Assembly: GCA_030837085.1 (NCBI GenBank)
Contig: JAUPLE010000150.1
Coordinates: 3,016-67,015 of the forward strand
Source of the DNA: Acidobacteriota bacterium
Lineage (GTDB): Bacteria; Acidobacteriota; Aminicenantia; UBA2199
DNA: 64,000 nt
Direction: 5' to 3'
Each line of letters begins with the position of its first letter. Within the stretch, counting starts at the first letter, position 1. The notes below the pieces were generated by a model. The model did no database searches, was not told where the DNA came from, and saw only the letters and a list, made by a program, of their open reading frames with translations. This document shows positions 4,337 to 11,400 of the stretch, piece after piece. The position numbers were made by a program, and so were the translations under genes.

Positions 4337-7300
4337 TCAAGAGCATTCTTCATTCTCCCGGTCATCCAAAATTTTCCTGATTATCCTAGCATTCTTTTCC
4401 ACCGCACCAGGGTCCAGCATTGCCTGGTGTCTTCCATATCCCCTGTGGACTCGATAATCCCGGTTAGTTATTTTTCGCCAGCAATTGATATCCCGTCCTG
4501 GATTCCAATTATCAGTATCTTCTCCGGAAGTGATCAAATGCACATTGGCATTAATCACCTCCAATTTCTCTAACCCCAGGTAATATTCCAAATATTTTCC
4601 CGATTTTTTCAATATTCTTTCCCTTAGAAAAGCAGCACCTACTTTTTCAAGATATTCATCGATCTCTTTAGATAAAAGCGCCTTGTACCTATCCTTGTCG
4701 AATCCTTTATAATAGGTTTTCCTGTCTTCCACATAATAACAATCGGCAAATATCACAGTCGATACTTCATAACCGCGGTCTTCAAGGGCTTTCGTTACTT
4801 CAAAGCATAGCAACCCCGCAATTGAATGACCAAACATAATATAAGGGCTGTCCGGTTGAATATCTGTGATCAAATCAACATACCGGTCTATGCGATCATC
4901 AGTTTCTATAAAACTTAACGCATAAAACGAGTAATCATTAAAAAAAGATGCCAGGCCGGTATAATAGACTCCATAGCCGATTTGAGGGGGAAAGCAGAAA
5001 ATATTATTCTTTGCCGCCCGGTTCAGTAATGCCACCGGCTTCTCTATAAAATTCTTTGCTCTTATAGAATCCGAGACCCCCATTATAGTGGGATTGTTAA
5101 ATAATTGATTGATTGGTATCTCGATTCCCAATTCTCTATGGATTTTAGAGTTCAATATCATCAATTTCAAGGAATTCCCCCCTATTTCAAAGAAATTACT
5201 ATTAATACTTAGTTTTTTTTCTTGTTTTCCCAGGACTTCAATGCATAATTGGGTTGTTCTTTCCTCGATCTCATCACGCGGTGCCAAATACTGGTGAGCA
5301 GGTTCCGATAATTTGGGATCCGGTAAGGATTTCCGGTCAACTTTCCCACTGGGGGTCAGTGGTATTCTATCGATTGATACAAAATGGTGTGGAACCATGT
5401 AAATCGGCAATCTGCCGGTTAAGTAAGCACTTAATGCAGATTTCTCTATTGCGGTATCAGAAACGATATAGGCACACAAAAAGGCATTGCTGTCTTCTCC
5501 TTTTTTCAAAACGACGGCTTCTTTTATGTTTTCATATGTTAAAAGCTGATTTTCTATTTCTTGCAATTCGATCCTGAATCCCCGAATTTTAACCTGGTGA
5601 TCTGTTCGTCCCAGGAATTCGATATTTCCATCTGTCAACCATCTGGCTAAATCGCCGGTTTTGTAGAGACGCGACAGGTGACGGGTAAGGGGCGATGAAA
5701 TGAATTTCTCTGCGGTTAATTCCGGTCGATTTAAATATCCCCGGGCCACCCCTCGTCCGGCAATACACAATTCTCCAGGTATTCCTAACGGCTGTACACG
5801 ATTATATTTATCAAGTATAAAAAGATTCAAATTCCGAATCGGTTTTCCAATTGGAATACTTCCTGTCCAATCCCATCCGGATATTGAATATTTACTTGAA
5901 TATACTGTTGCTTCCGTTGGGCCGTATAGATTCTCCAATTCGGCACCTATACTAAAGCCCCTGAGTTTTTCGAGATACCCCGGCAGCAGAACTTCTCCTG
6001 CGAGAAAAACATATCTCAGGCTTGCCAGTTGCTTCCTATTCTCTTTGGTTAAATGCTCTAAAAACGCATTAAACATGGAAGGCACAAAGTTGATGTAGTT
6101 GATAAAATTTCGCTCAATCGAGTTCAATATCACCCGGGGATCCTTTTCACCGCCCTTTTCCAATATTACCACTTTTCCTCCCCCCAAATACCATCCGAAT
6201 AATTCTGTTACCGATACATCGAAGATATAAGAGGTTTTTAACAAATAGGTATCCGACACCCCTAACGGATATTCTTTTTGCAGCGAAAATAATAAGTTTA
6301 CTACGGAAGTATGCTCAATCATCGCCCCCTTCGGCCTTCCCGTAGAACCAGAAGTGTAGATGAGGTAAGCAAGGTGACTTGAATGATTGATGAATGATGA
6401 ATGATGAAAAGGCTCCCCAGGCTCAGTCATTAACAATTCACAATTAACAATTGACAATTGACAATTAGCCATTTTTTTCTTTTCATAATCAGTTAATAAA
6501 ATCTTTGCGCCACTGTCTTTCAACATATAATCGATTCTTTCCTGGGGATATTCGGGATCAATGGGCAAATAGGCGCCTCCAAATTTTAATATTCCAATTA
6601 TACCTGTTATCATTTCAGTGGAAGGTTTCATCATAATTCCAACAAAAGGGGGGGTCTCGGAGTTCCTCCCATTGTGTTGTAACACCTGGGCCAATAGGTT
6701 TGACTTTTTATTTAATTCTCTGTAAGTTATATGTAGGAACGATTCATGATTCGCGATTAGGGATGGACCTGCAACGGCAATATTGTCCGGGATTTTAGCC
6801 ACCTGTTCTTCGAATAATTGGTGAATTGTCTTTTCTTTGGGGTACGTCATTTCGGAATCGTTAAAATCATACAATATCCGGTTTTTTTCTTCTTCTGTTA
6901 TGATTTCTATTTGTGCTATTTTCTTATCTTTGTTTTCAATGATCGAAGATACTATTATTTTGAAAAATTCAATAAATTTTAAGATGGTTTCTTCTTTAAA
7001 CAGTTTCGTGCAATATTCGAGTGCAAAAAATAAGTAATTTTTACTTCCCACTCCATTCCAGGTTATATCAAATCGAGACAAGGGTTTCGTATAATTAGAG
7101 GCGCCGGCGCCGGTCCGGTGTGTTTCATTTTCTGCGGAGCTTGCCCTGGTATTTACATTCGAATCGATATCCTGCCAGGCAAACATCACATCAAACAGCG
7201 GATTGCGAGCGACATCTCTTCTTACGCTCAATTTTTCTACCAGGTCTTCAAATTGGTAATCCTGGTTTTCAAAGGCTTCCAGGCTCCGTTGGTTTACTTC

Positions 7301-8419: not shown

Positions 8420-11400
8420 ATTGTTATTTCCTCCATTTTTTGATGTGAGTCTATTTTTTTATTATCTTCCCAGCTAACTATTTTTATTAAGGAGGCGATG
8501 TTCTTTATAGTGGGGGTTTTGAAAAGTTCAATTAAGGAGATGTGCACGTTAAAATTTTTCTGTATCTTCGCCGTCAATATAGTTGCCTTTAGTGAATGCC
8601 CTCCTAGCTGGAAAAAATTAGAATTTATACCGATTATATCCTTCTCTATTCCCAGCAATTCCGCCCAGATTTCTACCAGTTTCTCTTCTACTTTGTCCCG
8701 CGGCGGTTCATATTCCCGATCTACCTCCATTTTGGGCTCGGGTAATGCTTTTCGGTCAAGTTTTCCATTGGGAGTTAACGGTATTTTCTCCACAGGCACA
8801 AAATAGGAGGGAATCATATAATCCGGTAAACTCTTCGCTAAATATTCCCGCAAATCCGAAACCTCCAATTCCGTTTCCGGTATGATATAGGCGCATAGAT
8901 ACTTGTCTCCTTTGTCATCTATCCGGCATATTGTAACCGCCGCTTTTACACCGTGATGCTCTGCTAATCGCTTATCGATCTCTCCCAGTTCGATTCGGAA
9001 GCCCCTGATTTTAATCTGTTGATCGATTCGACCTAGGAATTCGATATTCCCATCCGGAAGTCGGCAAACCAGGTCACCGGTACGATATAACTTTGAATGA
9101 TGAATGATGAATGATGAATGATGAAAATCGATAAACTTTTCCGCGGTTAATTCCGGTTTATTCAAATAACCCAGGGCTATGCCGTCTCCGCCGACCAGTA
9201 GTTCGCCCGGTACCCCAACCGGCTGTAAATGATCATATTTATCTACAATGAATGCGTAGGAATTACCGATAGGTTTCCCAATGGGAATCCGCAAGTCATA
9301 ATTTTTATCTACTCGGAACGTAGTGGAAAATGTGGTGTTCTCCGTTGGACCGTAGCATTGGACGATTTTTAAATGAGGATACGTATTATGCAGTTTGTTG
9401 ACGGCCCCGGGTTTCACTAAATCTCCTCCGACTAAGAAATAACGAAGTCTGGAAAATAGCTCAATCTCCTGCTCTGCCATTTGATTAAATAATTGAGGGA
9501 TTAAATGCAGGATCGATATGTCATATTTTAATAACACTTCTTTCAACATTTCAGGATTTAAGATAATCTCTTTCGATACCAACAATAACGTAAAGCTATT
9601 TAGCAAGGGGCTCCATATTTCAAAAGTGCTTATATCGAAGGCGGCAGAGCCTGTCGGCAGTAATCGATCTTGCATTGAATACTGAATATAACCGGCATTT
9701 TTCACTAATCGTACTACATTCCGGTGCTCAACCATCACTCCTTTAGGCCTACCGGTAGACCCGGAAGTGTAGATGATATAAGCGATATTTGAAGCATTTA
9801 AATTCGAAGCACGAATATCGAAATCCGAAACAAATTCAAAATCCAAATGTTCAAAATCCAAAATCATCAAATCTTCAAAGTCTTTGTTTTGGTCATTTAT
9901 TTTTTGGCCATCAGGATTTGTTTCGAATTTCGAATTTCGAATTTCGGATTTTTTTATTAAGATGCTAGCTCCACTATCTTTTAACATATAATCGATCCTA
10001 TCTTGTGGATATTCCGGCTCAATGGGCAAATATGCGCCGCCGGATTTTAATATCCCCATTATTCCAACAATCATTTCAACAGACCGTTCCAAAATAATTC
10101 CGACAATAGTATCGAGTCCCACTCCTTTTGTTTGTAACACATGAGCCAATCGATTGGATTTTTCATCCAATTCTCGGTAAGACAATTGGATATTCACTCC
10201 CGCTAAGGATGGGCCGATAAGGGCTATATTATTAGGCGTCTCCCCTACCTGTTCCTCAAACAATTGATGGATAGTTTTATTGTTCGGATATTTGAGCTCC
10301 GTATTATTAAACTCATATAAAATTCGGTTTTTCTCTTCTTCGGTGATAATATCCAATTCCGACAACTTCTTTTCCCAGTCTTCCGATAAAGAATCCAAAA
10401 TTCTCTTAAAATAAGAAATAAATCGATCAATGGTTTCCGATTTAAACAATCGGGTGCAGTATTCGATATTGAAGAGACATTCATTTCCACGGTCTACAGC
10501 GGTTAATGCTAAATCGAATTTCGAGGTTCCTTCTCGATGGATGTAGTGATATTGGTCCTTTTCTTGGGGGCCAGGGATGTAATCATTATTCTCTTCCTTA
10601 TATAATAAGTTAAAAACAACGTTGAATACCGGATTTCGACCGGTATCCCTGGTTACCGATAGCTTGTCAACCAGTTCTTCGAACTGGTATTCCTGGTTCT
10701 CATACGCCTTCAAGGTACGTTCTTTGAGTTCCGTTAAAAATTCGCTAAATCTCTTTTCTCCGCAGGGGGTATTCCTCATGGCCAGGGTATTGACAAACAT
10801 CCCGATTATTTTTTCTAAATCCGCATGTCTCCTGGCTGCAATCGGCATTCCTACGACAATATCTTCCTGGCCGCTCAGCCGGGAAAGTAAAATTGTAAAT
10901 ACCGATAAAATACACATATACACGGTGGCGCCTGTTTGTTTTACCAACTCTTTTAATATCCGATTTTCTTCGACTGTTAATAAAAAATCCACCTGGTTGC
11001 CTGCAAAACTCTGGATTATTGGCCTGGGGTAATCGGTTGGGAGATTAAGAATCGGGACTTCATCGGCAAACATCTCCAACCAATAACGCTCCTGTTCTTT
11101 TGTTACTAATTTCTGTTGTTCACTGTTCTGCCACTCTGAATAATCTTTATATTGGAGCCGCAGGGGAGGTAATTCCTCTCCCGAATACAACGCCATAAAT
11201 TCTTTTTCCAATATACTTTGCGATATCCCATCTGTGATAATGTGATGCATATCGATCAGGAGAATTTGACGGGTGGATTCAACGGTTAAAAGTTCAACTC
11301 TTAAAAGAGGTGCCTTACTAAGATTGAAAGGCACGACAAAATTCGAAATAATATGCTTAATTTCTACCTCTGATGCATTGGAATAACGGATCGAAAAAGT

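Follow-up and report, generated by a model that had tools for sequence, protein, structure and literature searches.

Non-triplet tandem repeats, probably passenger DNA, translated within adenylation-domain loops of Acidobacteriota nonribosomal peptide synthetases

A 64,000-nucleotide stretch of Acidobacteriota DNA (GenBank assembly GCA_030837085.1, contig JAUPLE010000150.1, positions 3,016 to 67,015 of the forward strand; herein referred to as the window) consists nearly entirely of minus-strand nonribosomal peptide synthetase (NRPS) and polyketide synthase (PKS) open reading frames (ORFs), with a GC content of 40%. Within the adenylation (A) domains of three of these ORFs lie short tandem arrays of 7- and 8-nt units, which are the subject of this study. 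Such arrays had been noticed in an earlier reading of the letters alone (herein referred to as the original prediction), and Tandem Repeats Finder (TRF) and direct reading confirmed both their positions and their location within coding sequence (table 1); the octamer array at 62229-62265 had been missed. Every array lies in frame within an uninterrupted minus-strand ORF (4337-8419, 8416-17454 or 60763-63477). The host A domains are recognized by Pfam (PF00501/PF13193), their best match in the PDB is LgrA (E = 1e-246), and core motifs A2, A3, A6 and A7 could be placed in them, locating all of the arrays at three kinds of site: the tail of the A2-A3 linker, the A6-A7 loop and a short stretch ahead of motif A1. 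The window holds five period-7 arrays scoring at least 40, as compared with a mean of 0.01 and a maximum of 1 in 200 codon-shuffled windows, and the excess is hence real rather than a product of chance.

Table 1. Repeat arrays, palindromic element and host genes in the window (ORF, open reading frame; TRF, Tandem Repeats Finder; C, condensation; A, adenylation; T, thiolation; TE, thioesterase)
Position	Strand	Feature	Basis	Peptide	Location or remark
6380..6408	-	ATCATTC array, ~4 units, one mismatch	TRF + direct reading	FHHSSFINHS	
6429..6467	-	(AATTGTC)x5.6	TRF	ANCQLSIVNCELLM	A2-A3 linker of ORF 4337-8419
9094..9125	-	(ATCATTC)x4.6, perfect	TRF score 64	FHHSSFIIHHS	
9795..9953	-	~160-nt palindromic dispersed element, in frame			Fills A2-A3 linker, module 3 of ORF 8416-17454
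9921..9951	-	(GAAATTC)x4.4	TRF	KSEIRNSKFET	TTCGAAT array of the original prediction
61495..61526	-	ATCATTC array, one mismatch (ATCACTC)	TRF	LHHSSFITHHS	
62229..62265	-	Octamer (TTCCACGC)x4.6	TRF	FHPSTLPCCHASN	A2-A3 linker end, ORF 60763-63477
62589..62617	-	Octamer, GAAGAAGA-type, x3.6	TRF	AKKRRREEEKT	Just upstream of motif A1 (LSYRELN), ORF 60763-63477
4337..8419	-	TubC_N docking-C-A-T-TE NRPS module	ORF list, Pfam		
8416..17454	-	Three-module NRPS	ORF list, core-motif mapping		Arrays in module 3 only
60763..63477	-	Partial C-A-T NRPS module	ORF list, Pfam, protein match		

The original prediction held that a histidine-rich insert, HHSSFI(I/T)HHS, precedes motif A7 in three modules and replaces the usual NPF..GE(K/R)M stretch there. 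Both statements are true of two domains. In ORF 8416-17454 the array at 9094-9125 occupies the A6-A7 loop of module 3, with two codons between its end and YRTGDL, and the array at 61495-61526 lies in the A6-A7 loop of ORF 60763-63477 (peptides with the motif: FHHSSFIIHHSKL-YRTGDL and LHHSSFITHHSKF-YRTGDL, respectively). They are not true of the third: the copy at 6380-6408 (FHHSSFINHSSHLAY) directly adjoins motif A3 (SHLAYLIYTSGSTG) of ORF 4337-8419, at the end of the A2-A3 linker, where it forms one composite cassette with the AATTGTC array at 6429-6467. The cassette of 6380-6408 stands at the same place in seven related loci (L018, L086, L122, L145, L156, L158 and L160), and the composite is conserved in relatives, with homologous composites in L125, L145, L156, L162, L131 and L154. 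Two further A6-A7 loops of the window, at 5666-5701 (ISSPLTRHLSRL) and 51671-51721 (VFPSLHSTITSSLHYPA), also lack the canonical NPF..G and may be decayed repeat cassettes.

The recurrence of one His/Ser-rich peptide in several domains would seem to argue for a selected function; however, 7 and 3 are coprime, and a heptamer array thus gives one fixed periodic peptide of seven residues in any frame. (ATCATTC)n reads as periodic IIHHSSF in all three frames, so that the same peptide across domains and loops follows from frame-independent translation without any need for selection. As a TGA lies in GAATGAT, the opposite strand, only the ATCATTC strand can code. Indeed, the identical array occupies two non-homologous loops (A2-A3 and A6-A7), in the window and in relatives alike. 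Among 120 homologs found by protein similarity, several that are 39-51% identical have HHSSF-type loops, and in all four for which DNA was examined (L120, L121, L122 and L125) perfect runs of the same heptamer, 17-33 nt long, code for the peptide; in the 72 nt of flanking sequence, matching codons are used at ~47-54% of identical residues. Given the codon usage of the window, these exact ten codons have a probability of P = 3.5e-5 per copy. The suggestion that the nucleotide repeat is itself propagated is thereby upheld, and in the homologs compared on this point the insert comes with the repeat rather than without it. A search for homologous proteins with a 70-residue query around the insert returned short fragments only, none with HHSSF, and was uninformative.

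The heptamer is also widespread outside genes. When a single genome of each species was scanned for (ATCATTC)3 (loci L001-L119), at least 119 stretches of three or more units were found, against ~0.3 expected by a back-of-envelope estimate, and the phyla among the matches listed include Acidobacteriota, Bacteroidota, Planctomycetota, Chloroflexota, Nitrospirota, Verrucomicrobiota and others. Among these listed matches, 99 of 134 ATCATTC arrays have no open frame across the array; period-7 arrays number 226 (93 of them with other units), versus 3, 17 and 26 for periods 6, 8 and 9; and a (GAATGAT)n partner lies within 150 nt upstream of 29 of 118 genomic (ATCATTC)>=3 arrays and downstream of none. 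Genomic ATCATTC arrays are thus often predicted hairpin arms, with the order of the arms fixed. Several arrays in the scan stand at contig ends, suggesting longer arrays that break assemblies.

A metagenome scan for ATCATTC arrays within 30 nt of a YRTGD-coding pattern yielded 45 A domains. All 45 carry the 10-11-residue form HHSSFI(I/T)HHS, ending about two residues before the Y, and a seven-residue expansion of the insert occurs in none. The reading frame is open from A6 to A7 in 38 copies, and none of these 38 scorable copies has a frameshift across the array, such as a contingency locus would display. The ATCATTC insert is therefore neither a length hotspot nor an obvious phase switch. Histidine positions vary freely among the copies (H to L, R, Q or P); non-synonymous variants are common and synonymous scrambling is absent. 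At least 8 of the 45 domains, and likewise L018, have an ATCATTC array before A3 as well, that is, in phase on both sides of the core.

Taken together, several independent lines of sequence evidence indicate that HHSSFIIHHS is a by-product of the DNA repeat, with the DNA primary and the peptide secondary, and nothing that we found points to a purpose-built histidine-rich insert. The functional, for example metal-binding, peptide that the original prediction had offered as one of two readings is not borne out: the array yields the peptide in any frame, sits in two non-homologous loops, is mostly non-coding elsewhere and tolerates replacement of its histidines, and the segment it encodes is a minimum of model confidence (see below). 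The account of a conserved metal-binding insert is thus removed as unsupported, and the peptide is more simply a non-triplet DNA repeat that is read through.

The GAAATTC array at 9921-9951 is part of a larger element. According to the original prediction it encoded DFEHLDFEF (at 9922-9942); its product is KSEIRNSKFET, and DFEHLDFEF derives from 9832-9871. What had been missed is that this array forms the left arm of a dispersed palindromic element of ~160 nt, translated in frame as KSEIRNSKFETN...NDQNK...LDFEHLDFEFVSDFDIRASNL. Its inverted arms (9800-9835 and 9916-9951) are 36 nt long and 81% complementary, an inner period-7/15 repeat lies at 9832-9871, and the window copy has a predicted folding energy (dG) of -40.9 kcal/mol (z -2.7). 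L123 and L124 have the same ~160-nt sequence in their A2-A3 linkers, where the predicted hairpins reach -53.5 and -57.9 kcal/mol, respectively, and the range across four copies is -41 to -58 kcal/mol. A three-way alignment of the window, L123 and L124 has a mean column identity of 79%. Sliding windows over the same sequences place the element at 70-82% identity, the level of motifs A2, A7 and A8, and the adjacent core at 32-43%. An nhmmer search of the collected loci revealed further in-frame copies in L138, L141, L150 and L164 and partial copies in L051 and L092. Nested within the element are LKG(R/C)PRRGL in four proteins (P0196, P0241, P0020 and P0223) and a 36-nt insert in the left arm of L150 and L138.

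An exhaustive HMMER search with the 60-residue loop peptide against 1.84 billion representative proteins returned 129 matches. Of these, 63 are short ORFs (up to 200 residues) with unrelated flanks, apparently stand-alone copies; the one short match that was checked in DNA (L168) is intergenic, between ACPS and STAS genes, with a dG of -55.5 kcal/mol. Of the 65 longer matches, 60 show the A3 motif of an NRPS and two clearly belong to other kinds of protein. In 32 of 39 scored NRPS copies, the end of the matched core lies exactly 15 residues ahead of A3, a fixed register that favors inheritance over repeated insertion. With its hairpin arms, its unrelated genomic contexts and its in-frame translation, the sequence is best classed as a MITE/REP-like palindrome (resembling miniature inverted-repeat transposable elements and repetitive extragenic palindromes). 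Its arms are made of 7-nt units (AAATTCG, AAATCCG, AATATCG and AAGCACG), of which the perfect (GAAATTC)4 of the window is by all appearances a homogenized version.

Variation within the arrays is informative as to how they are maintained. In L156, two tandem modules on one contig, ~95% identical in the DNA around the array, are set apart by a clean indel of 21 nt, or three units, in (TAATTGT)n, which in peptide terms sets IIVNCQLLIVNCKLM against IIVNCKRM. This is the one instance of whole-unit change in copy number between close relatives that we met; it concerns an array homologous to the AATTGTC array of the window, and no such change was met among ATCATTC gene copies. The rule that only changes of three units preserve the frame was thus borne out once, and length variation of the proposed kind was met in the AATTGTC type and not in the ATCATTC insert, which is invariant in about 50 copies. 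The octamer arrays before A3 retain period 8 with differing units (TTCCACGC in the window, CTTCCTCG in L122 and CTTACCYT in L140), a constancy of period that carries the likely signature of concerted evolution within arrays. Finally, the A2-A3 loop of L121 and the A6-A7 loops of L120 and L166, in different assemblies, contain GATCTTCCACGC nested in an ATCATTC array; the composite in both types of loop implies that sequence has moved between arrays at non-homologous sites. The nested sequence (DLPR) is at 11897-11950 of L120, ~3060-3100 of L121 and in the A6-A7 loop of L166.

The sites that receive these repeats appear to be structurally permissive. That the arrays fall in A-domain loops, as originally proposed, is corroborated by core-motif mapping, by insertions relative to LgrA and by an AlphaFold2 model of ORF 60763-63477 (mean predicted local distance difference test score, pLDDT, 79.9). 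The local pLDDT minima of this model coincide with its three repeat-encoded segments (residues 287-294, below 50; block 401-410, 51; residues 656-660, below 50), and the A domain is otherwise confidently predicted. As compared with the LgrA structure, the KKRRREEEK segment inserts 11 residues and the HHSSFITHHS loop 4-5 residues. In the model, the repeat-encoded peptides thus behave as disordered loop filler and may well be neutral. The A6-A7 loops of relatives hold other small hairpin-forming cassettes (GGPGGRFFKKAPL; RSYRSYKTY). The former is a GC-rich stem with a predicted dG of -22 to -24 kcal/mol; the latter peptide is encoded by an array of a 9-nt palindromic unit, TAGGTCCTA, with a dG of -15. 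Such alternative cassettes are located at 13634-13690 and 6150-6206 of L120, 1197-1238 of L122, 7591-7632 of L123 and 2704-2745 of L124.

Regarding the host genes themselves, ORF 4337-8419 begins with a TubC_N-type docking domain and is a terminal C-A-T-TE module, downstream of which lies a MacB/FtsX-type permease gene (1815-4265) that likely encodes an exporter. The product of ORF 60763-63477 is 100% identical to a 904-residue protein of the metagenome-assembled genome (MAG) Acidobacteriota bacterium QG657_974 (P0001), although a look-up of the exact sequence yielded no contig that encodes it; in the protein libraries, the next matches, from Aminicenantes, Acidobacteria and Deferrimicrobium MAGs, are 45-51% identical. 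TRF also reports weak arrays elsewhere in the window, at 11278-11307 (period 15) and 54459-54492 (period 11).

We hypothesize that the arrays are passenger repeat DNA lodged in tolerant A-domain loops and kept where they are in frame, stop-free and disordered, and we regard this as the probable explanation. The genome of the lineage, an uncultured bacterium of Acidobacteriota/Aminicenantes type, would be rich in tandem heptamers and small hairpin-forming dispersed elements, and both heptamer arrays and the MITE/REP-like palindrome would have entered A-domain genes. There they would persist only if in frame, only on the strand with all three phases free of stops and only in permissive sites, namely the tail of the A2-A3 linker, the A6-A7 hairpin and the short stretch before A1. 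Once seated in an ancestral A domain, the cassettes may have spread through A-domain duplication and recombination, and their constant register to A3 and A7 fits with such joint multiplication; we infer this order of events, insertion and then spread by duplication. Occasional three-unit slippage and homogenization of units would keep the arrays periodic.

Several points weigh against this explanation. It does not fully explain why the ATCATTC array is conserved almost perfectly and kept constant in length beside diverged flanks; if the array is ancient and neutral, a homogenizing or copying process would be needed. The uniformity of insert length and register in about 50 A domains could stem from selection that acts on the peptide or on the length of the loop; the metagenome sample was picked by DNA pattern and is hence biased to intact arrays. 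An empty-site homolog of the palindromic element was not found among the homologs examined.

One alternative is that the cassettes are recombination joints at the edges of the A-domain core (A3 to A6), where identical DNA stretches or fragile palindromes promote exchange of core segments between modules and thereby speed product diversification. We consider this unlikely. The geometry does favor it: the arrays bracket the core, in phase on both sides in the subset of metagenome domains noted above, the composite cassette is common to both loops, and identity peaks at both arrays between domains whose cores are unrelated. In two comparisons a breakpoint in similarity coincides with the A2-A3 cassettes: identity between the window and L123/L124 falls from 70-82% to 32-43% right after the element, and between L145 and L156a/b it switches from ~50-70% to ~90% at the arrays. 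According to PMC8097286, recombination in natural NRPSs mainly exchanges parts of the Acore while the C-A linker and Asub are kept, and the cassettes sit where these exchanges occur. However, the motifs A3 and A7 that flank the arrays are identity peaks in any pair of A domains, the A6-A7 array is not where the downstream breakpoints lie, and the flanks, once loops are excluded, are barely more alike in array-bearing pairs (72%) than in array-less ones (66%). Cores also diverge on functional grounds among the modules of any NRPS, and the segment-identity and sliding-window results are consequently suggestive at the A2-A3 cassettes and not decisive. The same small difference between flanks lends faint support to the gene conversion invoked in the original prediction; a candidate conversion tract at the A6-A7 array, a ~90-nt island of 93-97% identity, was rejected, as it consists mostly of the array and conserved motifs. 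That the cassettes are natural splice points, which would explain their fixed register in many A domains of the lineage, we hold to be rather unlikely; if true, they would provide shared DNA for in-frame core exchange between modules and between clusters.

The remaining explanations are less probable again. Stable predicted hairpins at a conserved position (-41 to -58 kcal/mol) and loop DNA as conserved as the catalytic motifs (70-82%) might suggest that the A2-A3 palindrome and the hairpin cassettes of relatives act on RNA, pausing translation or controlling mRNA processing. We judge this quite improbable: across eight copies of the element, none of 44 predicted pairs shows compensatory change, the paired columns being invariant CGAA/TTCG cores, and no Rfam match was found, so that there is no evidence for a selected RNA structure; the window z-score is moreover only -2.7, and the ATCATTC arrays are unstructured (the array at 9094-9125 has a predicted dG of 0). 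Selection on HHSSFIIHHS as a metal-binding or protein-contact loop (spacing HHx5HH), with the DNA periodicity incidental, is very improbable. Its constant length and register in about 50 A domains, often at two loops of one domain, would be expected of a functional peptide; yet divergent homologs agree on the heptamer at codon level, substitutions change the peptide (histidines included) and never merely scramble the codons, in many phyla the same DNA lies mostly outside coding sequence, unrelated cassettes fill the same loops in relatives, and pLDDT is low. Slightly further down the scale, and highly improbable, is a phase-variation switch, in which gain or loss of heptamers would shift the frame and turn the assembly line off or on. 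Non-triplet units in coding sequence are what such a contingency locus requires, perfect arrays imply some ongoing slippage or homogenization, and L156 supplies one slippage-type indel. However, the arrays number just ~4.6 units, the sole indel preserves the frame, 38 of the 45 metagenome copies are open from A6 to A7 with none frameshifted, and several arrays per cluster would switch without coordination. Finally, the source is metagenome-assembled and repeats can be mis-assembled, but the arrays are at most 39 nt long and thus shorter than reads, frames are kept over ORFs of 1.3-9 kb, and identical arrays stand at the same sites in independent NCBI, ENA and JGI assemblies, leaving an assembly or sequencing artefact with a negligible probability.

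Translated passenger repeats, as we hypothesize them to be, bear on both the engineering and the evolution of NRPSs. Two A-domain sites (the tail of the A2-A3 linker and the A6-A7 hairpin) are naturally filled with 10-55 arbitrary residues in many modules, and such tolerant sites are a useful guide for engineered insertions or fusion points. The arrays also offer a concrete and testable link between genome repeats and mosaic NRPS evolution in uncultured Acidobacteriota/Aminicenantes. The A2-A3 region is known to accept insertions from interrupted adenylation domains, in which auxiliary domains are inserted between A2-A3 or A8-A9 (Labby et al. 2015, as cited in PMC8097286), and two other modules of the window are interrupted there too: ORF 36478-42162 has an insert of ~610 residues between A2 and A3 (~39232-41064) with Pfam matches to Radical_SAM (CxxxCxxC) and B12-binding domains, and ORF 42232-47943 has an insert of the same length (~45031-46860) that, by its CxxxCxxC motif, may be similar. 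In a related Aminicenantes locus (L120, 8280-9977), a free-standing B12/radical-SAM gene lies beside the NRPS instead of such an insert. The inserts of interrupted domains are folded catalytic domains, whereas the arrays contribute 10-55 residues of low-complexity repeat translation.

Coding simple sequence repeats (SSRs) and in-frame palindromic elements are already known kinds of sequence. Over-represented heptanucleotide SSRs occur in bacteria (Mrazek et al. 2007, as cited in PMC4692102), for example the cyanobacterial STRR repeats and the GGGNATC repeats of Xanthomonas and Nostoc. Like the arrays described here, they are tandem 7-nt units with many variants, often in inverted pairs, mostly intergenic and variable in length; unlike them, the window copies are coding and in frame, their units are ATCATTC, AATTGTC and GAAATTC, the host belongs to the Acidobacteriota, and the ATCATTC gene copies do not vary in length. 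An assignment to the cyanobacterial STRR repeats was rejected, as the unit sequences differ and the nearest relatives are Aminicenantes/Acidobacteria MAGs. Contingency loci resemble the arrays in having non-triplet tandem repeats within an ORF, such that the frame shifts when the number of units changes; they differ in that their repeats lie near the 5' end of a surface-protein gene, whereas here short arrays, several to a cluster, lie in an enzyme loop and 0 of 38 copies are out of frame. Small dispersed repeats nested in other repeats were reportedly described from Nostoc by Elhai and colleagues in 2008, and the GATCTTCCACGC sequence in ATCATTC arrays and the short inserts in the palindromic element are comparable, although sequences and host are unrelated.

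In the incomplete library that could be searched, no literature linking NRPS A domains to MITEs or SSRs was found, and a repeat family at fixed A-domain sites in NRPSs of uncultured Acidobacteriota/Aminicenantes appears to be undescribed in the literature searched. The nearest precedent is the Rickettsia palindromic elements, which insert in frame into genes (a 2000 study, as summarized in PMC10969869). In both cases, a dispersed palindrome of ~150 nt is found between genes as well as in frame within ORFs, where it is translated as an extra segment compatible with the fold of the host protein. The element described here belongs to another sequence family and another phylum, and nearly all of its coding copies occupy one site, the NRPS A2-A3 linker, which argues that the element inserted once or a few times and was then copied by domain duplication, as opposed to having entered unrelated genes many times independently. 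It adds a non-rickettsial example of palindromic repeat DNA that is translated inside enzymes.

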